Shown piece by piece: positions 86 to 27,616 of a DNA stretch of 56,553 nt. Every line of letters starts with the position of its first letter. Within the stretch, counting starts at the first letter, position 1. Origin of the DNA: Minisyncoccota bacterium. Lineage in GTDB: Bacteria; Patescibacteriota; Minisyncoccia; Phycocordibacterales; UBA9973. The notes beneath the pieces are model-generated. The model was given only the letters and a program-made list of their open reading frames with translations. It made no database searches and was not told where the DNA came from. Made by a program: the position numbers and the translations under genes. The stretch is from NCBI GenBank assembly GCA_035403785.1, contig DAONFW010000006.1, positions 1 to 56,553 of the forward strand, in the 5' to 3' direction.

Positions 86-1081
86 ATGAAAAATGCTGGT
101 AAAAAACTAAAAATCGGGATACTTTTTGGTGGAAAATCTACGGAGCATGAAGTTTCTATCAAATCTGCTACGAATATCATGGCTGCTTTAGATAAGGCTA
201 AATATGAAATTGTAAAAATAAAGATAGAAAAATCTGGAAAATTTAATTTGAATTTATTAAAAAAAGTTGATGTTGTTTTTCCAGTTTTGCATGGATCTTT
301 TGGTGAAGATGGCACAATGCAGGGATTTTTGAAAATTTTAGAAAAGCCATTTGTTGGGCCTTCTGTTTTGGGATCAGCTGTTGGTTTTGATAAAGATGTA
401 ACAAAAAGATTATTAACAGAAGCCGGGATTCCAAATACTAAATTTTTAACTTTTAGAAAAAATGAAAAAATAAATTTTGCTGAGGTAAAAGAAAATTTAA
501 ATTTGCCCATGATTGTAAAACCAGCAAATGCAGGATCTTCTGTTGGAATTAGCAAAGTTTCTGATCAAAAAGAATTTGAAAAAGCTGTAAAATTTGCTTT
601 TAAATTTGATAATAAAATAATTATAGAAAAGTTTTTGGCTGACAGAAGAGAAATAGAATGTGCTGTTTTGGGAAATGAAAAACCAAAAGCTTCTGTTTGT
701 GGTGAAGTTATTACGAACAAGCAGCACGCTTTTTATTCTTATGAAGCAAAATATCTTGATGAAAAAGGTGCTGAATTAGAAATTCTGGCTAAGATTTCAA
801 AAGAAACTCAAAAGAATATTCAAGATTTAGCTGTTAGAACTTTTAAGACTTTAGAATGTGAAGGTTTGTCTCGTGTGGATTTCTTTTTAATGCCTGACGG
901 TGAGATTCTAGTTAATGAAATCAACACAATTCCTGGATTCACGAATATCAGTATGTATCCAACACTTTGGAAAAATACCGGAATTTCTTATTCTAAACTG
1001 ATAGATAAATTAATAAATTTAGCGATAGAAAGATTCAAAAAAGAGCAGAAATTACAAACTTCTATAAAAATAAAAAAATAA
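86..1081 (+). CDS. ddl: D-alanine--D-alanine ligase
   Basis: ATP-grasp Ddl hallmarks (KIGILFGGKSTEHEVS near the N-terminus, EINTIPGFT near the C-terminus). ATG at 86 is preferred over the track's TTG at 65 because 68-76 reads as an extended -10 (TGCTACAAT). Confidence 0.93.
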   Translation: MKNAGKKLKIGILFGGKSTEHEVSIKSATNIMAALDKAKYEIVKIKIEKSGKFNLNLLKKVDVVFPVLHGSFGEDGTMQGFLKILEKPFVGPSVLGSAVGFDKDVTKRLLTEAGIPNTKFLTFRKNEKINFAEVKENLNLPMIVKPANAGSSVGISKVSDQKEFEKAVKFAFKFDNKIIIEKFLADRREIECAVLGNEKPKASVCGEVITNKQHAFYSYEAKYLDEKGAELEILAKISKETQKNIQDLAVRTFKTLECEGLSRVDFFLMPDGEILVNEINTIPGFTNISMYPTLWKNTGISYSKLIDKLINLAIERFKKEQKLQTSIKIKK

Positions 1082-2707: not shown

Positions 2708-4633
2708 ATGGATAAAAATTCACGCAAAAAATACGTTAGAAGAAAAATCCAAGATATAAAAAGTAGGGCAAAACACGCTGCTGTTTATTCAAAAAAACTT
2801 ATTTCTCCGGTTTTTGGTTTTGGATTAAAAATGTCTGGTTTAATTTTATTTGGAATTTTATTGATTTTAGGAATTGTTAAGATTTTCTTTTTTGAAATAA
2901 AATATCAAGACAAGTTTTATCCGGGTGTCTATGTAGCAAATGAAAAAGTTGGAGGTTTAACATATGATGAGGCCGTAATACGTTTTAAGGAAAAGGTAGA
3001 AAATTTTAGAGCTAACGGAGTTAATGTCGAGATTGAAAACTCGCAGGGACTAAAAAAGAAAATAAATGTTCCAACTTTGACTGCTGGTTTGGCTGCGGAT
3101 AATACGATTGAATATTTTTTAATAAATGGATGGGAAAAGGATTTACAAAAAGCCTATCAGTGGGGACGTGGAAGCAGTGTTTTTCGTGATGTTTGGCAAC
3201 AAATAATTCTAATATTTACTAATAAAAATTTTGATTTTTCAAATTCTGTTCAAAAAGAAGCTGTTAGTTCTTTGCTTGAAAGTGAATTGAATAGTTTTTT
3301 AACAAAAAGCAAATCAGCTGAATTTTCTTTTGTCAAAAATAAACTAGTTATTTCTAAAGAGCAAGTCGGGGAGATTTTAAACAAAGAAGAAATTCTAAAT
3401 ATTTTGGCAAAAAAAGTTTCGCAGTTTGATACAGATATAGTTTATTTTAAAACCCAAGAAGATATTTCTGTTGTTAAAAAAGTTGATTTGGAAAAACACG
3501 CAACTTTTGTAGAAAATTTTGGAAATAAAATCAATTTCTCGTTTTTTTATAATGGTTTCAGGTGGTATGTAAAAGGAGCCAAATTTGTTAATTGGCTTAC
3601 TATTAACAGTAATAGTGAAAATTTAAATAGCGGTGAAAAAGAAATTTATTTAAATAAAAATAAATTAGAAAGTTATTTTTCTGAGAATATTGATAGACTA
3701 ATAGAAAATCCTCCAAGAAATAGTAGATTTGAAATAAGAAATGGAAAAATATTTGAGCTTGTTTCAAGCAAAAAAGGTAATGCGATAGATATTGAAAAAG
3801 TAGCTGAAGAAATAAATAAAATAATTAGTGATTCTAAAAACAATCTAGATCTTCAGAAAAAAACTTTTGATATACATATCGAGACAATTCAAATTGAGCC
3901 AAAAATAACCAAAGATTTGTTGTTAAAATATGAAATCAAAGATTTGATAGGTCGCGCTTCTACAAGTTTTGATGGAAGTAGTGCTGACCGCGAACATAAT
4001 ATAAGAACTGGAGTTTCTGCGATAAACGGAATTTTACTCGCGCCTGGTGAGGAGTTTTCTACTGTAAATTCTATTGGTCATGTTTCAGAGAAAGAAGGAT
4101 ATAGAAAAGAAACTGTAATTAAACAGAATAAGACAACGAAAGAATTTGGCGGTGGTTTGTGTCAGGTTGCGACAACTTTGTTTAGATTAGCTTTGAATAC
4201 TGGTCTGCCCATTACAGAAAGAATCAATCATCGTTTTACTGTGCCTTATTACGATCCGCCAGGTTTAGACGCAACTATTTATGGACCACATCCTGATCTG
4301 CGTTTTGTGAATGATACAGGAAATTATGTTTTGTTGCAGGCCAGAGTAGAAGGTAAAAAAATAATTATGGAATTTTACGGTAGAAAAGATGGTAGAATCG
4401 CAGAAGTTTCTAAACCAGTTGAATCAAATTGGATACCAGCACCAGCAACAAAATATATACCGACAAATTATCTTTCTGTTGGTCAGGTTAAATGTTCTGA
4501 AACACCACATTCAGGTTTAACCACTGATGTTTTGTATACAGTTAAATATCCCGATGGTATAACAAAACAAAGAAATTTTAGAAGTATTTATCAACCATGG
4601 CAAAAAGTTTGCTTGATCGGAGTTAGTTATTAG
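2708..4633 (+). CDS. VanW/YoaR-like membrane-anchored protein
   Basis: N-terminal TM helix. The C-terminal region has a VanW-type signature (GGGLCQVATTLFRLALNTGLPITERINH). Confidence 0.75.
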   Translation: MDKNSRKKYVRRKIQDIKSRAKHAAVYSKKLISPVFGFGLKMSGLILFGILLILGIVKIFFFEIKYQDKFYPGVYVANEKVGGLTYDEAVIRFKEKVENFRANGVNVEIENSQGLKKKINVPTLTAGLAADNTIEYFLINGWEKDLQKAYQWGRGSSVFRDVWQQIILIFTNKNFDFSNSVQKEAVSSLLESELNSFLTKSKSAEFSFVKNKLVISKEQVGEILNKEEILNILAKKVSQFDTDIVYFKTQEDISVVKKVDLEKHATFVENFGNKINFSFFYNGFRWYVKGAKFVNWLTINSNSENLNSGEKEIYLNKNKLESYFSENIDRLIENPPRNSRFEIRNGKIFELVSSKKGNAIDIEKVAEEINKIISDSKNNLDLQKKTFDIHIETIQIEPKITKDLLLKYEIKDLIGRASTSFDGSSADREHNIRTGVSAINGILLAPGEEFSTVNSIGHVSEKEGYRKETVIKQNKTTKEFGGGLCQVATTLFRLALNTGLPITERINHRFTVPYYDPPGLDATIYGPHPDLRFVNDTGNYVLLQARVEGKKIIMEFYGRKDGRIAEVSKPVESNWIPAPATKYIPTNYLSVGQVKCSETPHSGLTTDVLYTVKYPDGITKQRNFRSIYQPWQKVCLIGVSY

Positions 4634-5643: not shown

Positions 5644-6036
5644 ATGAGTGTAGAAGAATTTCCACCAATTAAAAAAGATAAAAAACCAGAGGAAGAAAAT
5701 GCAAAGGTCATGTTACTCCATGCTTTTAATCAATTTATTGAATTTAAAACATTTATCAAACTTATCAGAAAGAGTGAAGAAACTGGTAATAAAAGCGGAC
5801 TTTCTTATAGTGAAATAAAGAAAATATTAAAAAATACAGAATTTAAAAACTTAGAAGAAATTACAGAGCATGTTTTTTCTTTGGAAGAACTTGAAAAAAT
5901 AAGACCGGGAATTGGAGAAATATATAAAACATTAGTAAAAGAATTTAAAAGACCAAATTTAAAATTGGAGGAACTGGAATATTATATATCCATGGTAGAA
6001 GATTTGATTAAGGATGTACAGAGTTATAAAATTTAA
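5644..6036 (+). CDS. hypothetical protein
   Basis: ORF with an ATG 6 nt downstream of TGCTATACT (5629-5637). Charged, helical-looking sequence with no recognisable family. Confidence 0.5.
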   Translation: MSVEEFPPIKKDKKPEEENAKVMLLHAFNQFIEFKTFIKLIRKSEETGNKSGLSYSEIKKILKNTEFKNLEEITEHVFSLEELEKIRPGIGEIYKTLVKEFKRPNLKLEELEYYISMVEDLIKDVQSYKI

Positions 6037-6938
6037 TTTTTAAAAACTTTTTGAAAAATATCTTTTTTGTCTGTTTTACCAGGATCAAACCAAATTATTT
6101 CTTTATCTCTTTTGAACCAAGCCATTTGGCGTTTTGCAAATTTATTTATTTCAGAGTTTAATTTTTCTAAATATTCTTTTTTGGTTAATTTTTTCTGCAG
6201 ATATAACGCAGTGTATCTGTATTCAAGACCCAGTTCTTCCATGCGTTTCCAACTTAAGCCATTTTTGTGTAGATTTCTAATTTCTCGCAACATGCCGGCT
6301 TTGATTCTATTGTTTAATCTTTTCTCTATGCGCTCTTTCAGAACATCATTCGGCATTGTTAGACCAATTTTTATAAATTCATATTTTTGATCTTTTTTAT
6401 TCTTAGAATCAGCAAGTTTTGGCACTTTGCCGAGAGCTTTTGCGATTTCAATAGCTCTGATTAATCTGACTTTATTTTTAGCATCAATATTTTTTGCGCG
6501 AGATTTGTCTAATTTTTTTAACATTTCAAAAAGTTGGCTAGCAGTTTTTTTATTTAAACTAGCTCTAAGTTTTTCATTCGGTGGAACTTCAGGAAAAGTC
6601 ACATTATTAATAACAGAATCAATATAAAATCCCGTGCCACCACAGATTATTGGCACTTTGTTTCTTGAAATTATTTCTGTTATTTTCTGATCAGCTAATT
6701 CTTTGAATTCCGCAACCGTGAATCTGTTTTTTGCATTTGCCACGTCTAATAGAAAGTGGGGGATTTTCTGCATTTCTTTTTTTGTGATTTTACCCGTGCC
6801 CAAATCAAGACCAGTATAAACTTGCCTAGAATCAGCAGAAATCACTTCTCCGCCTATTTTCTGCGCAATAAACACGGCCAAATCGCTCTTTCCAGTAGCT
6901 GTTGGACCTAAAATTACGATTATTTTTGGTTTGGGCAT
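6033..6938 (-). CDS. miaA: tRNA dimethylallyltransferase
   Basis: P-loop ILGPTATGKS at the N-terminus, IPP-transferase-like core, 301 aa. Confidence 0.9.
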   Translation of the reverse strand: MPKPKIIVILGPTATGKSDLAVFIAQKIGGEVISADSRQVYTGLDLGTGKITKKEMQKIPHFLLDVANAKNRFTVAEFKELADQKITEIISRNKVPIICGGTGFYIDSVINNVTFPEVPPNEKLRASLNKKTASQLFEMLKKLDKSRAKNIDAKNKVRLIRAIEIAKALGKVPKLADSKNKKDQKYEFIKIGLTMPNDVLKERIEKRLNNRIKAGMLREIRNLHKNGLSWKRMEELGLEYRYTALYLQKKLTKKEYLEKLNSEINKFAKRQMAWFKRDKEIIWFDPGKTDKKDIFQKVFKN

Positions 6939-7466: not shown

Positions 7467-7533
7467 TGAAAGAAAAATATAAAGCAATAAGATTAATTCT
7501 TGATTCAAACAAAGAATACTTATAAAAATAAAT

Positions 7534-9042
7534 TTATTTCAAAATCTTAATATCCGCGCCGATAGAATTTAATCTGCTTGCGATTTCTTCATAACCTCTG
7601 CTTATCATATATACGTTTCTGAGAATAGAAGTGCCGTTTGTGCCCAACATTGAAATTAAAATTATCATAGACGGTCTCAACGCTGGCGGACAGACAACTT
7701 GTGCTGGTTTCAAATTAGTTCCGCCTGTTATATAAACTCTATGTGGATCAGCAAGTGTAATATTTGCGCCAAGTCTATTTAACTCAGTAAAATAAATCGC
7801 TCTGTTTTCATAACTCCAATCGTGAATCATCGTTTGACCTTTTGCTTTTATCGCAATCGGCACAAAGAAAGGCAAGTTGTCCATGTTTATGCCGGGATAT
7901 GGATTCGCATGAATTTTGTCTTCCAACGCAATTAACTTAGACGGAAAAATTTTTAGATCTACTAATTTAGTTTTGTTATTATAAGAAAGATATTTTTTTA
8001 ATATTTTAAATTTTAAATTCATTCTTTTTAACTTTTCTAATTCTAAAGACAAGAAATCTATCGGCACGCGAGTGATAGTGAGCTCAGAATCTGTAATTAT
8101 TCCAGCAGAAATGAACATCATAGACTCAATCGGATCTTCACTGTTCCAGTATTCTATATCTTGGTTTATTTCTTTTACACCATGCACTGTAAGTGTAGAA
8201 GTACCAATGCCGTCTATTTGCACGCCTAGTTTTTCCAAAAAGAAACAAATTTCTTGCACCATGTAATTCGCACTAGCAAAACTAATTACAGTCTTGCCTG
8301 GAATTCTTGCAGCCGCTGTAAGAACATTTTCACAAGCAGTATCACCAGCTTCGTACATGACTATTTCTGCAGGTTTTAATTTTTTTGCTTCTATATTGTA
8401 AGAATTATTAGTAGTCTTTATTTTAATACCTAAATCTTCAAATGCATAAGTGTGCGCTGCGATTGTTCTTTTACCAAGATTGCATCCAGATGCATGAGGC
8501 AAAGAAAAGTTTTGCAAAAAATGCACAAGTGGCCCAATAGTCATTAAGACTGATCTAGTTTTAATCGCAGATTCTACGTTTATTTTTTCTAATTTAAAAA
8601 CTTTTGGTGGAATTATTTCTACAGTATTTTGCACTGTCCAATTTACTTTCACGCCGATACTTTCTAAAATTTCTATCACTCTGTTCACTTCTTCTATTCG
8701 CGCGATGCCGTGCAGTGTAGTTTTTCCTTTATTGAGTAGGGAAGCACACAAAAGTCCCACAGAGCCGTTTTTTGAAAAATTAGTAGTAATACTGCCAGAT
8801 AATTTCTTTCCACCAACAACTTGAAAATCCATAGAGTCATTTAGACAAACTAATTTGTGCTCTAAAACTTCACTAATTTTTGTAAGTAAATCAGTAGTAA
8901 AGTTTTGTTCGCCTTTTTCCATACGCGCAACCGCGCTCTGTGATGTGCTCAATGCTTTTGCGAATTCTCCCTGAGTCATACCGCGTTGTTCGCGTAATGT
9001 TTTGATAAAAGTTCCAATTTGTTTAGATTGTGAATTTTTCAT
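7534..9042 (-). CDS. murA: XRE-family HTH domain fused to UDP-N-acetylglucosamine 1-carboxyvinyltransferase
   Basis: The first ~65 aa are a Cro/C1-type HTH (LREQRGMTQGEFAKALSTSQSAVARMEKG). The rest aligns by eye to MurA: SKNG (K22/N23 equivalent), catalytic loop LPHASGCNLGKR (Cys115/Arg120 equivalent), YPGINMD (Asp305 equivalent). Confidence 0.85.
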   Translation of the reverse strand: MKNSQSKQIGTFIKTLREQRGMTQGEFAKALSTSQSAVARMEKGEQNFTTDLLTKISEVLEHKLVCLNDSMDFQVVGGKKLSGSITTNFSKNGSVGLLCASLLNKGKTTLHGIARIEEVNRVIEILESIGVKVNWTVQNTVEIIPPKVFKLEKINVESAIKTRSVLMTIGPLVHFLQNFSLPHASGCNLGKRTIAAHTYAFEDLGIKIKTTNNSYNIEAKKLKPAEIVMYEAGDTACENVLTAAARIPGKTVISFASANYMVQEICFFLEKLGVQIDGIGTSTLTVHGVKEINQDIEYWNSEDPIESMMFISAGIITDSELTITRVPIDFLSLELEKLKRMNLKFKILKKYLSYNNKTKLVDLKIFPSKLIALEDKIHANPYPGINMDNLPFFVPIAIKAKGQTMIHDWSYENRAIYFTELNRLGANITLADPHRVYITGGTNLKPAQVVCPPALRPSMIILISMLGTNGTSILRNVYMISRGYEEIASRLNSIGADIKILK

Positions 9043-9051
9043 ACTTTTTAT

Positions 9052-9069
9052 TATATCATATATGATATA
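9052..9069 (-). promoter_or_regulatory. 18-bp perfect palindrome (candidate operator) overlapping the HTH-murA promoter
   Basis: TATATCATA|TATGATATA. It overlaps the -10 TATAAT (9050-9055, minus), which lies 7 nt upstream of the ATG at 9042. Confidence 0.5.
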
Positions 9070-9095
9070 TCACAAGCAAGTTAGTGAAAAAATAA

Positions 9096-9117
9096 AAAAC
9101 CTAAAATATTAGGTTTT
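9096..9117. terminator. bidirectional hairpin terminator downstream of tRNA-Leu
   Basis: 9-bp stem AAAACCTAA / TTAGGTTTT with a 4-nt loop, flanked by A and T runs on both sides. Confidence 0.6.
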
Positions 9118-9123
9118 ATTCTG

Positions 9124-9207
9124 TGCCGCGGGAGAGACTTGAACTCTCATGGGGTTGCCCCCGAACGATTTTGAGTCGTTTGCGTCTACCAATTCCGCCA
9201 CCACGGC
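9124..9207 (-). tRNA. tRNA-Leu (anticodon CAA)
   Basis: The reverse complement folds as a class II tRNA: acceptor GCCGTGG/CCGCGGC, D arm GCGGAATTGGTAGACGC, anticodon loop CTCAAAA, long variable arm, T arm GAGAG-TTCAAGT-CTCTC. Confidence 0.9.
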
Positions 9208-9291: not shown

Positions 9292-10308
9292 ATGTCTAAT
9301 TTATATTCCAACTCAATATTCTGGATCGACACTGATAAAATAAAGCCAAATCCATATCAACCAAGAAAAGAATTCGATGAAGCAAGACTTCAAGATCTAG
9401 CTGAGTCTATAAAGCAATATGGCGTTCTTCAGCCACTTGTCGTTTCTAGGGTAGAAAAAGAAAAAGACGATGGTGGTATGATTACAGAATATGAATTGAT
9501 AGCCGGCGAAAGAAGATTGCGCGCTGCCACTTTGGCTAGAGTTTCCCAAGTTCCAGCTATTATTAGAGTTGGAGATTCTAGCATGATGAAACTAGAATTG
9601 GCTATTATTGAAAACTTACAACGTGAAGATTTGAATGTAGTTGATAGAGCAAGGGCTTTCTTTCAACTAGCTAACGAATTTAAATTTACTCACAGTGAAA
9701 TTGCAAAGAAAATGGGACGCAGTCGTGAGTATGTTTCTAACACTTTGCGTATTTTGTCTCTTCCAGAAGAAATTTTACAAGCTTTGTCTGAAGGAAAAAT
9801 AACAGAAGGGCACACGAGACCAATTTTGATGCTTGTGGACCATCCAGAAGAGCAAATAGTTTTGTTTAAAGAAATAGTTTACAAAAAAATTACTGTTCGT
9901 GAAGCTGAAAAGTTAGCAAGGAAAATTGCTTATGACAGAGTTCGTAAGAAAGAATTCATGCCAGATCCAGAAATAGTAGAAATCGAAGAAGAATTTCAAG
10001 ACAAATTGGGCACCAGAGTGCATATAGAAAGAAAAGAAAATGGCGGACAAATTAAAATAGATTTCTTTTCAAACGAAGATTTGAGAACGATTTTGGATTT
10101 GATTAGTAAAACAAATTCAGAAAAAAAGCCAACTGAGATGCTAGAGAAATATATTGCCAAAGAAGAAGGAGAAGAAGGGAGCAATAATATTACCAGATCT
10201 GAATCTGTAGAAAATTCTAACGAAACGTCGTTACTCGACGATAGAACAAAAGAAGAAAAAAAAGAAGACGAAACTGAACTTTATGACATTTCGAATTTTA
10301 GTGTTTAG
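9292..10308 (+). CDS. parB: ParB/Spo0J-type partition protein
   Basis: ParB box (GVLQPLVV, IAGERRLRAA), an HTH region, and an acidic C-terminal extension. No parA is adjacent. Confidence 0.88.
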   Translation: MSNLYSNSIFWIDTDKIKPNPYQPRKEFDEARLQDLAESIKQYGVLQPLVVSRVEKEKDDGGMITEYELIAGERRLRAATLARVSQVPAIIRVGDSSMMKLELAIIENLQREDLNVVDRARAFFQLANEFKFTHSEIAKKMGRSREYVSNTLRILSLPEEILQALSEGKITEGHTRPILMLVDHPEEQIVLFKEIVYKKITVREAEKLARKIAYDRVRKKEFMPDPEIVEIEEEFQDKLGTRVHIERKENGGQIKIDFFSNEDLRTILDLISKTNSEKKPTEMLEKYIAKEEGEEGSNNITRSESVENSNETSLLDDRTKEEKKEDETELYDISNFSV

Positions 10309-11768
10309 TTTTTACCGAAATTTTTAAGTCTGTTTAATAAACTATTTTTATCTAAATAACTTTTGATATTCTTTTTTGCTGTGGTTGTTTTTACATAATT
10401 AAGCCACTTGCTAGATGGGTGAGAGTCTTTTTTGGTCACAATTTCTACAATGTCTCCATTTTTTAATTTAGTATCAAGAGGAGACATTCTTCCACTAATT
10501 TTTGCGCTAGAAATATGATTGCCGATGTCAGAGTGAATCATATAAGCAAAATCTATTGGAGTAGAATCAACTGGTAAATCTACAACGTCACCCTTAGGTG
10601 TAAAAATAAAAATTCTATGACTGAAAAAATCTGTTCTTAAATTATCTAAAAACTGCTTAGGATCAACCTCGAAATTCTTTAAGCTTTTTAAACCTTCAAG
10701 CCATTCTAGTTTTGATTTATCTAATTTTATGCTGCCTTTTTCTTTGTATGCAAAGTGAGCTGCTATACCATAAGCTGCTTCTGCATGCATTTCTTTTGTT
10801 CTAATTTGTATTTCAACTATTCCGCCAGAACCAGTGAAAATAGTAGTATGAATAGATTGATAGCCGTTTGGTTTTGGTACTGCAATGTAGTCTTTTATCC
10901 TGCCTGGAAGTGGTCGCCATAAAGAATGAACCAATCCTAAAACTTTATAACAATCTGATATATCTTCTACTACGACACGTAGTGCGATTATATCGTAGAT
11001 TTTTTCTATGTCCATATTGTATCTCTGTAATTTTTTCCAAAGGCTGTATTTGTTTTTTATTCTATAAGTAAGTTCAGAAACTTTTATATTTTCTTCTTTC
11101 AAAACTTTTTCGAGCTCACTTCTAACCTCGTCCATTTCTTTTTGGAAAGATTCTTTTTTCTCTTTTATTATTTCTTCTATTTCTGCGTATTCTTTTGGAT
11201 AAGCAAAAGGGAAGGCAGCGTCTTCGATTTCTCCTTTTAGTTTTCCCATTCCAAGTCTATTTGCAAGGGCTGCGTATACTTCAATAGATTCTAATGCGAT
11301 TCTTTTTCTTTTATCTTCACGTATATATTCCAAAGTTCTAAGATTGTGTAATCTGTCTGCAAGTTTAATGATCACGACGCGCAAGTCGTTTGCCATAGCG
11401 ACGAAAAATTTACGCAAACTTTCAACGTGTCTTTCACGTCCGTGATATTTCAAAGTGCCAAGTTTTGTAACTCCTTTTACTAAAAAAACTATTTCTTCAC
11501 CGAATTTTTCAGTTAGTTTTTTTTCAGAAATTTTTGTATCTTCCAATACATCATGCAAGAGACCCGCAGCAATTGTCTTTGCGTCCATGCCTATTTTTGC
11601 AAGATTTTTTGCTGTTTCAAAAACATGCACGAAATATGGATCTCCGCTAGAACGTTTCTGGTCTTTGTGTGCTTCTTGAGCAAAATCAAAAGCTTCCTGA
11701 ATTAATTTTTTATCTTTTTCAGAAACTCCGCCAGGTATTAAATCAAAAATTTCTTTTATATCTGACAT
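10305..11768 (-). CDS. rel: short bifunctional RelA/SpoT-homolog (p)ppGpp synthetase/hydrolase
   Basis: HD hydrolase motif (HDVLEDT), RelA/SpoT synthetase core and a TGS domain (GDVVDLPVDSTPIDFAY). It ends after TGS at 487 aa. Confidence 0.88.
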   Translation of the reverse strand: MSDIKEIFDLIPGGVSEKDKKLIQEAFDFAQEAHKDQKRSSGDPYFVHVFETAKNLAKIGMDAKTIAAGLLHDVLEDTKISEKKLTEKFGEEIVFLVKGVTKLGTLKYHGRERHVESLRKFFVAMANDLRVVIIKLADRLHNLRTLEYIREDKRKRIALESIEVYAALANRLGMGKLKGEIEDAAFPFAYPKEYAEIEEIIKEKKESFQKEMDEVRSELEKVLKEENIKVSELTYRIKNKYSLWKKLQRYNMDIEKIYDIIALRVVVEDISDCYKVLGLVHSLWRPLPGRIKDYIAVPKPNGYQSIHTTIFTGSGGIVEIQIRTKEMHAEAAYGIAAHFAYKEKGSIKLDKSKLEWLEGLKSLKNFEVDPKQFLDNLRTDFFSHRIFIFTPKGDVVDLPVDSTPIDFAYMIHSDIGNHISSAKISGRMSPLDTKLKNGDIVEIVTKKDSHPSSKWLNYVKTTTAKKNIKSYLDKNSLLNRLKNFGKN

Positions 11769-27547: not shown

Positions 27548-27616
27548 GCTAATAACTTAATATCGATATACACCCCAATAGAGGAAGACGGGGTGTTATT
27601 GTGTTATGAAAAAGAT

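Follow-up and report, generated by a model that had tools for sequence, protein, structure and literature searches.

Among the described proteins that come closest to the HTH-MurA reported here, BirA, the biotin protein ligase and bio operon repressor of E. coli, is a model for how the ligand state of an enzyme could gate dimerisation and DNA binding. Like HTH-MurA, it combines an N-terminal DNA-binding domain of the HTH type with a catalytic one in a single chain, and its dyad operator overlaps the promoter of genes of its own pathway. BirA differs in having a winged rather than an XRE-type HTH, in its enzyme fold and pathway, and in that it does not regulate its own gene; moreover, control by a corepressor is proven for BirA, while for HTH-MurA it is a guess. 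NadR (XRE-type HTH, NMN adenylyltransferase and ribosylnicotinamide kinase) is similar in that an N-terminal Cro/C1-type HTH sits on active enzyme domains and represses the genes of its own pathway, but its enzymes are different and lie outside peptidoglycan synthesis, and it has several NAD gene targets, as opposed to the sole site seen here, at the protein's own (and murB's) promoter. PutA and RbkR are also enzyme-repressor fusions, or "trigger enzymes" (PMC5397151), i.e., metabolic enzymes with a DNA-binding domain controlling pathway genes. PutA autoregulates from the divergent putA-putP control region, which is comparable to the murB<>HTH-murA organization described below, but its DNA-binding domain is of the ribbon-helix-helix type and its switch is a redox/membrane one. 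RbkR, in turn, is archaeal and has another DNA-binding domain, and neither of the two involves the EPSP-synthase fold.

By sequence, the closest relatives of the fused HTH are the HigA/Y4mF-like XRE antitoxins of type II systems (best-scoring HTH model: TIGR03070, E 1.7e-10), for which autorepression via a promoter dyad is the norm. Yet, the score of HTH-MurA against TIGR03070 (40.7) stays below the cut-off of 71.65, and the protein differs from antitoxins in that its HTH is N-terminal on an enzyme and no toxin gene lies beside it, the neighbors identified by Pfam in the window being MiaA, an HD-domain protein, ParB and RelA/SpoT.

MurA is the gatekeeper of peptidoglycan synthesis, of which it catalyzes the first committed step, and the target of fosfomycin. 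Its known control, which acts on this very enzyme and likewise serves to restrict the flux at that step, includes feedback by UDP-MurNAc as well as ReoM/ClpCP proteolysis and PASTA-kinase control in Firmicutes. To our knowledge, all of this control acts on the protein (inhibition, degradation, partner binding) and none of it makes MurA a DNA-binding transcription factor. A link between MurA and LpxC is described in Pseudomonas (PMC9995270). Our literature search, with subscription journals outside its coverage, returned no paper on an HTH-MurA fusion or on such control of MurA. HTH-MurA resembles the enzyme-repressors already known. In its sequence a DNA-binding and an intact catalytic domain share one polypeptide, and an operator is positioned at a promoter of its own pathway (over its own -10 and, in 43 of 80 relatives, also at murB). 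We consider it likely that HTH-MurA is bifunctional: a catalytically active MurA and, in addition, the repressor of its own promoter, which is probably leaderless. If true, a sequence-specific repressor MurA would add a transcriptional layer to a much-studied enzyme through a compact system of one protein, one 18-bp site and a bidirectional promoter of ~40 bp, and would do so in a fusion spanning thousands of lineages of Patescibacteria, a major uncultivated group with very few transcription factors.

Domain organization and distribution of the fusion

The window, i.e., the whole stretch of 56,553 nt analyzed here, was first annotated as encoding an XRE-type HTH and a full-length MurA in one 502-aa ORF. 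Both Pfam domains were indeed matched within a single frame that runs without interruption in the ORF list, and the following features were assigned to it:

7534..9042, minus strand: HTH-MurA gene, 502 aa plus stop codon (ORF list; both Pfam domains; >8000 homologues of like architecture)
8863..9042, minus strand: XRE/Cro-C1 type HTH domain, aa 1-60 (Pfam HTH_3; AlphaFold model)
8917..8940, minus strand: predicted recognition helix, aa 35-42 (QSAVARME), within the motif TSQSAVARME (third helix of the model; SAVAR and SS(V/I)PR variants track half-site variants)
8833..8862, minus strand: flexible linker, aa 61-70 (mean pLDDT 57; <50 for aa 65-68)
7537..8832, minus strand: MurA (UDP-GlcNAc 1-carboxyvinyltransferase) domain, aa 71-502 (NF006873; PDB MurA matches; Foldseek; residues invariant in 68 fusions)

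The HMM scan called for in the first-pass annotation placed the domain borders at aa 13-60 for HTH_3 (PF01381, E 1.9e-12) and aa 77-490 for EPSP_synthase (PF00275, E 2.2e-39). In the AlphaFold model (pLDDT 89.5), the HTH is a helical bundle of four (aa 4-19, 24-30, 35-42 and 50-60), joined to MurA by a flexible tether with no fixed HTH-MurA interface in the single chain. Its residues R17, Q24, T33, Q35, S36, R40, E42, G44 and N47 are invariant among 68 fusions.

We found that the fusion is very common in Patescibacteria, where over 8000 protein clusters, as well as 238 species-level genomes of GTDB, have the same ~502-aa architecture. The clusters sharing this two-domain protein of ~500 aa come from independent NCBI, JGI, ENA and Logan assemblies, and the linker and the HTH/MurA junction are conserved among fusions. 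This refutes the explanation that two separate genes were merged in the ORF by an error of assembly, a possibility which the first-pass annotation had itself raised, or by a frameshift. At present, the fusions are named in databases either plain "MurA" or "XRE family regulator". The production of an HTH-less MurA from a conserved internal start was considered and rejected, as Met71 of the window protein is Ile in most relatives.

Integrity of the MurA domain

In our best reading, the 430 residues at the C terminus form the working MurA of the organism and are predicted to be active. The two-domain inside-out alpha/beta barrel fold of MurA was recovered in the model and by Foldseek against solved MurA structures (TM-score ~0.9; top match E 9e-39), and the best PDB MurA match of the domain has an E-value of 4e-52. 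The window protein passes NF006873, the NCBIfam MurA subfamily model (305 bits vs. a cut-off of 297), and stays below the strict MurA equivalog TIGR01072 (297.3 bits vs. 392.7). Since the latter is also missed by P0122 (320.8), an orthologue lacking the HTH, and by the second-type MurA of locus L201 (312.2), we attribute this to lineage divergence.

Residues K91, N92, R163, C187, R192, D388, R414, R456 and R482 correspond to K22, N23, R91, C115, R120, D305, R331, R371 and R397 of E. coli MurA, as numbered on a reference sequence consistent with the PDB alignments. Across 68 fusions with identities of 53-95%, the equivalents of these residues and of H125 do not vary, and the HTH-less orthologues checked have catalytic residues identical to those of the fusions. 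The alignments agree with the earlier assignment of K22/N23 to SKNG and of C115 and R120 to GCNLGKR, and with the presence of D305 (in INMDN); the arginine of LRPS, however, which had been taken for R397, is R371, and R397 is the arginine of ISRGY. Likewise, the description of the enzyme as apparently intact holds for the listed catalytic residues, but Asp369 is replaced by Ala (PPALRPS) across the whole clade, fused or not. In MurA enzymes Asp369 is conserved and implicated in the interaction with PEP and fosfomycin. A D369N MurA has been reported in E. coli clinical isolates (PMC4790336).

Fused and unfused genes share a common mreB<>murA-priA synteny, and therefore we regard the fusion as the housekeeping orthologue. 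It is unlikely that the protein is a regulator only, with its MurA domain acting as a ligand sensor and the real MurA encoded elsewhere in the genome. The missed TIGR01072 cut-off and the Ala at D369 would fit such a role, and a regulator-only state seems to have arisen in the distant fusions P0131, P0274, P0271 and others, which lie beside a distinct murA-murB operon. Yet, the other catalytic residues are invariant in the 68 fusions and the same as in syntenic HTH-less orthologues, many species share the protein at ~80% identity, no second MurA-like gene was found in the 56-kb window or, besides the fusion, in the 80 related loci (loci being read over up to 21 kb), and the NF006873 cut-off passed by the window protein is failed by the degenerate ones.

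The distant fusions P0131, P0274, P0271 and others have lost R91, C115, R120, R371 and R397, and they look like pure regulators. We observed the catalytic loss only where a distinct second murA-murB operon adjoins (3/3 loci examined). The retention of fold, HTH and operator in these dead descendants may be an indirect hint that DNA binding is governed by ligand or catalytic state. The neighboring canonical MurA is as distant from the MurA domain of the fusion (27-29% identity) as E. coli MurA is, and so belongs to a different MurA lineage; on the same grounds, duplication followed by subfunctionalization was rejected as the origin of the dead fusions.

Operator and promoter of the HTH-murA gene

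The region upstream of the gene contains the following elements:

9052..9069, no strand: 18-bp dyad operator TATATCATATATGATATA, half-sites ATATC and GATAT (exact match; conservation in relatives)
9050..9058, minus strand: extended -10 TGATATAAT (TGnTATAAT; TATAAT at 9055-9050), overlapping the right operator half-site (read from sequence; like geometry in relatives)
9074..9079, minus strand: -35-like TTGCTT, 18 nt upstream of the -10 (read from sequence; TTGCA conserved in relatives)
9040..9042, minus strand: ATG start codon, 7 nt after the -10, no Shine-Dalgarno (sequence)
9096..9117, minus strand: AT-rich hairpin AAAACCTAA-tatt-TTAGGTTTT with a run of T after it (read from sequence)

As first noted, TATATCATATATGATATA is a perfect 18-bp palindrome at 9052-9069, and it is the sole match in the window even when 3 mismatches are allowed. 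It fills the -35/-10 spacer and overlaps the -10 (TATAAT, 9050-9055) by 4 nt, a geometry which had been read as suited to autorepression and which does suit it; its edge, though, lies 9 nt before the ATG and not 10. In 55 of 77 loci the ATG lies 9-13 nt from the operator, and the murA mRNA, with a transcription start deduced from the sequence, is probably leaderless or nearly so. A tRNA-Leu gene lies upstream of murA on the same strand (9123-9207). The hairpin at 9096..9117, which was skipped by the terminator scan because it has fewer than three G-C pairs, is likely the terminator of this tRNA and would insulate the murA promoter.

The -35-like TTGCTT was not called by the consensus scan because only 3/6 positions match, and in relatives the -35 is TTGCAA or TTGCAT, with a spacer of 17 nt in most of them vs. 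18 nt in the window. A weak -35, an 18-nt spacer and an operator located in that spacer would fit an activator remodelling a sub-optimal spacer like MerR-type regulators do. We regard activation as highly improbable, given that most relatives combine the 17-nt spacer with a good extended -10 and should work without an activator, and that the operator overlaps the -10 itself. XRE/Cro-type proteins and related antitoxins at such promoter positions are known to act as repressors.

Taken from the window alone, the palindrome has no significance and was rejected on that basis, as ~0.9 are expected per window by chance: first-order Markov shuffles (n = 200) of the window at 32% GC contained on average 0.93 perfect palindromes of at least 18 bp, with one or more in 123/200 shuffles. 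We take it as real because it is conserved in relatives. The operator is present upstream of the gene, exactly once per locus, in 79/79 related loci with upstream DNA. It also occurs in 7/7 distant fusions (four intact, three degenerate; 39-64% identical), picked by protein similarity alone, so that the palindrome and the fusion do co-occur, a point on which the first-pass annotation had made its proposal depend. The information content of the operator is 1.88 bit/position vs. 0.27 in the flanks, and it is retained in GC-rich contexts at 50% protein identity. Its variants are symmetric (TATCTC..GAGATA, TCACATGTGA and TATAGC..GCTATA), while the central TCATATATGA is nearly invariant. In turn, the operator is absent from 4/4 HTH-less orthologues in the same gene neighborhood, and no HTH gene was found within 4 kb of these four.

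Two further candidates were discarded. The sequence ATATCGATAT in the uvrA leader (27560-27569), which had been singled out as a related arrangement, exists, but it gives no operator match within 3 mismatches and its half-sites directly adjoin, whereas those of the operator are separated by 6 bp; we therefore treat it as unrelated and not as a second operator. A link with DnaA boxes or an origin was likewise rejected: many relatives have TTATCCACA-like boxes ahead of the promoter, and those at -36/-37 are murB coding sequence. No DnaA boxes were detected at the window promoter and no enrichment across the window, and the GC skew indicates no clear origin near the HTH-murA gene.

Proposed recognition and role of the operator

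Recognition of the 18-bp dyad by the fused HTH is supported by several lines of comparison, namely their co-occurrence, the absence of the dyad from HTH-less orthologues, covariation, and reuse in toxin-antitoxin systems. Proteins with the SQSAVAR helix are associated with no G-type half-site (32 loci) or one (8 loci), never two, and those with the SQSS(V/I)PR helix with one (24 loci) or two (12 loci), never none; this pattern persists through at least 12 state changes inferred on a MurA-domain tree. It is not a clean code, with eight A-type proteins having a mixed operator, and the variant operators of L204 and L212 pair with an unchanged SAVAR core (P0376 has TTQS for TSQS, and P0271 has IE for ME). 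We also found Gp49-toxin/XRE-antitoxin operons whose HTH is ~50% identical and which carry the identical 18-bp operator at their own promoters. Part of the conservation of the right half-site could reflect promoter function, because this half-site coincides with the extended -10.

In the 43 of 80 relatives mentioned above, the operator region is common to divergent murB and HTH-murA. Their start codons are 37-41 bp apart, with the operator mid-region and its half-sites doubling as extended -10s, and in 38/42 loci with divergent murB 8-13 nt separate the murB ATG from the opposite edge of the operator. Such a layout would also be produced if the palindrome were promoter architecture only, i.e., back-to-back extended -10s (TGATATAAT) for divergent genes, each half-site being TGnTATAAT on its own strand and a start codon lying 8-13 nt beyond each edge; alternatively, it could be the site of another protein, as other contigs encode free-standing XRE proteins that have a related HTH and share this operator. 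That the fused HTH is not the binder is nevertheless quite improbable. The full dyad is kept without a divergent gene (next to the same-strand tRNA-Leu of the window and in L205-L207), and it is absent from HTH-less orthologues which also have a divergent neighbor, mreB, and need a promoter. Furthermore, the central TCATATATGA is nearly invariant though it is no promoter element, the half-sites change symmetrically and in step with the recognition helix of the fused HTH, and in the seven fused loci for which genes were called, no separate HTH gene was called in the 3-10 kb around the fusion.

With the fused HTH as the binder, the MurA domain would transfer enolpyruvyl from PEP to UDP-GlcNAc, while the N-terminal XRE-type HTH, presumably as a dimer, would bind TATATCATATATGATATA on its own promoter and exclude RNA polymerase, so that MurA would limit its own synthesis by negative autoregulation. 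The murA transcript would begin at the ATG or within a few bases of it, and in relatives with divergent murB one bound dimer would silence both of the first two committed steps at once. As a rule, MurA enzymes are monomeric. Dimer formation of HTH-MurA is presumed, and the means of bringing two HTHs together is not evident in the model. Modelled on biotinyl-AMP in BirA, our guess is that a closed, UDP-MurNAc- or substrate-bound MurA may alter dimerization or DNA affinity.

A broader proposal, which we hold tentatively and judge somewhat short of probable, is that the MurA/EPSP-synthase fold serves as the ligand sensor of an unrecognized transcription-factor family. In intact fusions, the open or closed state of MurA, or its loading with UDP-MurNAc/PEP, would decide on dimerization and on binding to the operator. 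Peptidoglycan-precursor levels would then directly dictate how much murA (and murB) is transcribed from a promoter that is compact, bidirectional and leaderless, some lineages would have turned the protein into a dead regulator of a mur cluster, and the HTH would have been taken over together with its operator from a toxin-antitoxin antitoxin. An evolutionary series leading from an antitoxin HTH through an enzyme-repressor fusion to a catalytically dead mur-cluster regulator is possible.

A metagenome-wide scan with the operator returned at least 120 loci. Among the 120 matches listed, 85 are not adjacent to an HTH-murA gene, and most of these represent unrelated contexts, such as longer hairpins (CCCAT..ATGGG), AT-rich simple repeats and regions of other GC contents; no regulon was defined among the matches listed. 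The same scan turned up fusions 50-80% identical as well as toxin-antitoxin homologues.

Domain architecture and spread of the HTH-murA fusion

We found that HTH-murA is a single 502-aa ORF, read without interruption on the minus strand (9042-7534). Pfam places an HTH_3 domain at aa 13-60 (E 1.9e-12) and an EPSP_synthase domain at aa 77-490 (E 2.2e-39). The protein reaches the NCBIfam MurA subfamily model (305 bits, cut-off 297) and misses the strict MurA equivalog model (297 bits, cut-off 392.7). The proposal of the first-pass annotation, an XRE-type HTH fused to a full-length MurA, is thus borne out. The closest solved structures are MurA enzymes (5ujs, E 4e-52), and the N-terminus resembles HipB-type antitoxins. 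In a confident AlphaFold model based on 68 homologues (pLDDT 89.5, pTM 0.82), the N-terminus forms four helices and is followed by a low-confidence linker (aa 61-69). The MurA part matches solved MurA structures at a TM-score of about 0.9, and in the model only a flexible tether joins it to the HTH.

Residues K22, N23, R91, C115, R120, H125, D305, R331, R371 and R397 (E. coli numbering) are kept in all 68 fusions compared (53-95% identity). All catalytic residues claimed earlier are present, except that the LRPS motif assigned to R397 contains R371, and R397 is the arginine of ISRGY. The position of Asp369 is occupied by Ala. This residue has been linked to PEP/fosfomycin interaction, and clinical isolates of E. 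coli with D369N have been reported (PMC4062475, PMC4790336); hence, the substitution is no argument for a dead enzyme.

The protein search returned at least 8000 homologues. The best 120 of these share 79-95% identity over about 502 aa and carry both domains, except for the N-terminally truncated P0018 (462 aa). They stem from NCBI, JGI, ENA and Logan assemblies, and the source names of close homologues include Nomurabacteria, Pacebacteria and Paceibacterota. A close relative is encoded in 238 species-level GTDB genomes. Recurrence of the same two-domain protein across these four assembly sources and the GTDB species speaks for a real gene. At the 50% cluster level, identity of the fusions goes down to about 31%. 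Further searches detected fusions in Liptonbacteria, Taylorbacteria, Colwellbacteria, Tagabacteria and Doudnabacteria.

The operator and its association with the HTH

Features around HTH-murA and mur-related genes of the window (neighbours by Pfam; Ddl-like gene from the MurA/mur search)
113-961, plus strand: Ddl-like gene
6033-6938, minus strand: MiaA
6981-7466, plus strand: HD-domain protein
9042, minus strand: ATG of HTH-murA, seven bases past TGATATAAT
9058-9050, minus strand: extended -10 TGATATAAT
9069-9052: perfect palindrome TATATCATATATGATATA, putative operator
9079-9074, minus strand: TTGCTT, followed by an 18-nt spacer
9117-9096, minus strand: AT-rich hairpin with a T run, 9-bp stem AAAACCTAA / TTAGGTTTT, 4-nt loop
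9207-9123, minus strand: tRNA-Leu, upstream of HTH-murA
9292-10308, plus strand: ParB
10305-11768, minus strand: RelA/SpoT-family protein

The 18-bp perfect palindrome reported over the HTH-murA promoter was recovered between TTGCTT and the -10. By itself it is unsurprising in a 32% GC genome, as shuffled windows contain on average 0.93 palindromes of such kind. No Shine-Dalgarno sequence occurs in the seven bases between TGATATAAT and the ATG. The hairpin at 9096-9117 is likely the terminator behind tRNA-Leu; a terminator scan based on G+C made no call for it. A 14-bp all-AT palindrome, AAATAAATTTATTT, at 7526-7539 overlaps the HTH-murA stop codon, in the stretch where HTH-murA and the HD-domain gene converge. 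The related half-site arrangement suggested for ATATCGATAT at 27560 did not hold and was discarded as a second operator: its half-sites abut, and it lies beside an unrelated hairpin. There, in the leader (27560-27596, plus strand) of an 890-aa ORF, presumably uvrA as first annotated, ATATCGATAT is directly followed by ACACCCC(13 nt)GGGGTGT.

Conservation of the palindrome was examined in 80 GTDB loci of close relatives, whose proteins are 76-83% identical. In 72 of them a single copy of the degenerate pattern TATMTCATATATGAKATA is present, always upstream of the gene; the remaining loci have one or two extra mismatches, one of them the symmetric double variant TATATCACATGTGATATA, and in one of the 80 loci just 18 nt precede the gene. 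With the loci aligned on the site, information content reaches 1.88 bit/position over the 18 bp vs 0.27 in the flanks. In 55 of 77 loci the operator ends 9-13 nt before the ATG, i.e., the -10 lies 7-11 nt from it; because of this short distance, their mRNAs should have little or no leader. Metagenomes scanned blindly for the operator yielded, among the matches listed, exact copies at the start of fusions of only 50-57% identity, and in L155 and L193 the all-AT 18-mer is conspicuous within GC-rich flanks. Fusions picked solely by protein similarity carry it 6-14 nt ahead of the ATG in Liptonbacteria (L205), Colwellbacteria (L206), locus L207 and Doudnabacteria (L204, symmetric variant TATAGC..GCTATA). 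The palindrome is thus kept where the fusion occurs, in close loci with upstream DNA as in these distant sets.

Other MurA proteins lack the HTH; they are about 430-445 aa long, form a sizeable clade and share 64-69% identity with neighbouring fusions. Four such genes (L208-L211, at 4001 in each) lie in the RRF-holB-mreB<>murA-priA neighbourhood of the fused Liptonbacteria/Taylorbacteria genes, and their active-site residues are identical to those of the fusions. The operator is absent from these four loci, the best match anywhere being single, non-palindromic and with 4 mismatches, and no HTH gene of its own lies within 4 kb in any of the four. Since HTH-less orthologues share the mreB<>murA-priA synteny with fusions, the Paceibacteria have evidently lost or gained the HTH on more than one occasion. 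Because of the same common synteny, the fusion is to be regarded as the housekeeping murA; no second MurA-like gene was detected in the window or in any of the 80 related loci.

Among close relatives, two recognition-helix types occur. TSQSAV(A/V)RME is paired with TATATC..GATATA (G/C-type half-sites: 0 in 32 loci, 1 in 8, 2 in none), and TSQSS(V/I)PRME with GAGATA (0 in none, 1 in 24, 2 in 12). In a neighbour-joining tree built from the MurA domain only, helix type changed at least 12 times (Fitch count) with the association kept. The tree is rough, and the count could be too high if the HTH-operator module recombines; recombination of this kind would, in turn, mean that HTH and operator belong together.

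Among the matches listed in the metagenome scan, eight (L139, L173, L174, L192, L197, L166, L082, L126) have a standalone XRE protein nearby that shares about 50% identity with aa 8-64. In L139 (1535-2219), a Gp49-family toxin gene (PF05973, E 5e-20) precedes an XRE antitoxin gene, and an identical 18-bp operator overlaps the operon start. Such XRE antitoxins autorepress via promoter dyads. Two unrelated gene contexts thus share the HTH-operator pair, with the operator on the HTH gene's own promoter in both, and the module may have originated in a toxin-antitoxin operon.

Degenerate fusions

In distant fusions (P0131, P0271-P0275, P0128, P0141, P0137, P0143, P0190, P0214) most arginines and the cysteine loop are gone, and P0131 falls under the MurA cut-off (235 vs 297). 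In all three loci examined, the degenerate fusion and a murA-murB (or murD-E-F-A-B) operon point away from each other, and more mur or ddl genes follow the fusion.

Regions of degenerate fusions
L201: 8598-11477
L203: 4275-11518
L212: 5574-9536

The operon-neighbour MurA of L201 and L203 is of another lineage and shares 27-29% identity with the MurA domain of the fusion; that of L201 scores 325 bits, above the MurA cut-off, and that of L212 is recognised by Pfam only. The operator or a close symmetric variant is located in the 29-70 nt intergenic region of all three loci. Thus, in these three loci, catalysis is predicted to decay only alongside another MurA, and HTH, fold and operator persist. 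This supports a regulatory role that is real and selectable by itself, and it supports that intact fusions, the window's included, do both jobs. The degenerate proteins appear to be dedicated regulators in which the MurA fold would serve as a sensor. Judged by eye, MurA of the second type in L201 (8598-9914, minus strand) and L203 (4275-5588, minus strand) reads ENGLDF and PGIIQAT vs ENRFMH and ATDLRAS in E. coli; these proteins may lack R331 and R371 equivalents despite passing the subfamily cut-off.

Divergent murB and the proposed autorepression

In 43 of 80 relatives (e.g., L035, L012, L033, L048) the divergent upstream neighbour encodes MurB (FAD_binding_4 and MurB_C). The murB ATG lies 8-13 nt off the left operator edge in 38 of 42 such loci, the two start codons then being 37-41 bp apart, as in L035 (about 3950-4003): CAT-ATTGCAAT-[operator]-AAATAGTAAAT-ATG. 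Seen from murB, the left half-site reads TGATATAAT on that gene's strand, and the ATG comes after a further 6-8 nt; each half-site would thus be the extended -10 of one of two divergent, probably leaderless genes, and one bound dimer would shut off both together. As tRNA-Leu takes the murB side in the window, and no murB is found across its 56 kb (nor other mur genes besides HTH-murA and the Ddl-like gene), autoregulation alone would apply there.

A perfect DnaA-box-like TTATCCACA, in one orientation, lies 15-35 nt upstream of the operator in L009, L010, L014, L064, L065, L067, L068, L073-L075 and L078. Loci with this motif just upstream of the murA promoter are those without divergent murB; similar matches elsewhere, at -36/-37, fall within the murB coding sequence. 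The promoter in the window has no such box, nor is the motif enriched overall in the window.

We consider it quite probable that the fusion works as a MurA enzyme and, through its HTH, represses the promoter of its own gene by occluding the -10. This autorepression, as originally proposed, has strong comparative support in operator conservation, operator absence at HTH-less genes and helix/half-site covariation. MurA is usually monomeric and closes on UDP-GlcNAc; the MurA-MurB pair, which in many relatives is under predicted operator control, makes UDP-MurNAc. UDP-MurNAc and a PEP adduct tightly occupy MurA in several solved structures (e.g., 3swd, 3su9). Our favoured, still speculative idea is that ligand binding to the MurA domain would gate dimerisation of the fusion; autorepression by concentration alone, with no ligand, is equally compatible with the data.

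We know of no MurA control via DNA binding by MurA itself. The fusion sequences have long been public, labelled 'MurA' or 'XRE family regulator'; the predicted regulatory function appears new, as the library searched contained no publication describing an HTH-MurA fusion or its function. Like BirA, NadR, PutA and RbkR, the fusion would be an enzyme with a DNA-binding domain controlling its own pathway. Yet, it lies outside these families: it combines a genuine MurA with an XRE HTH whose closest resemblance is to HigA/Y4mF-type antitoxins.
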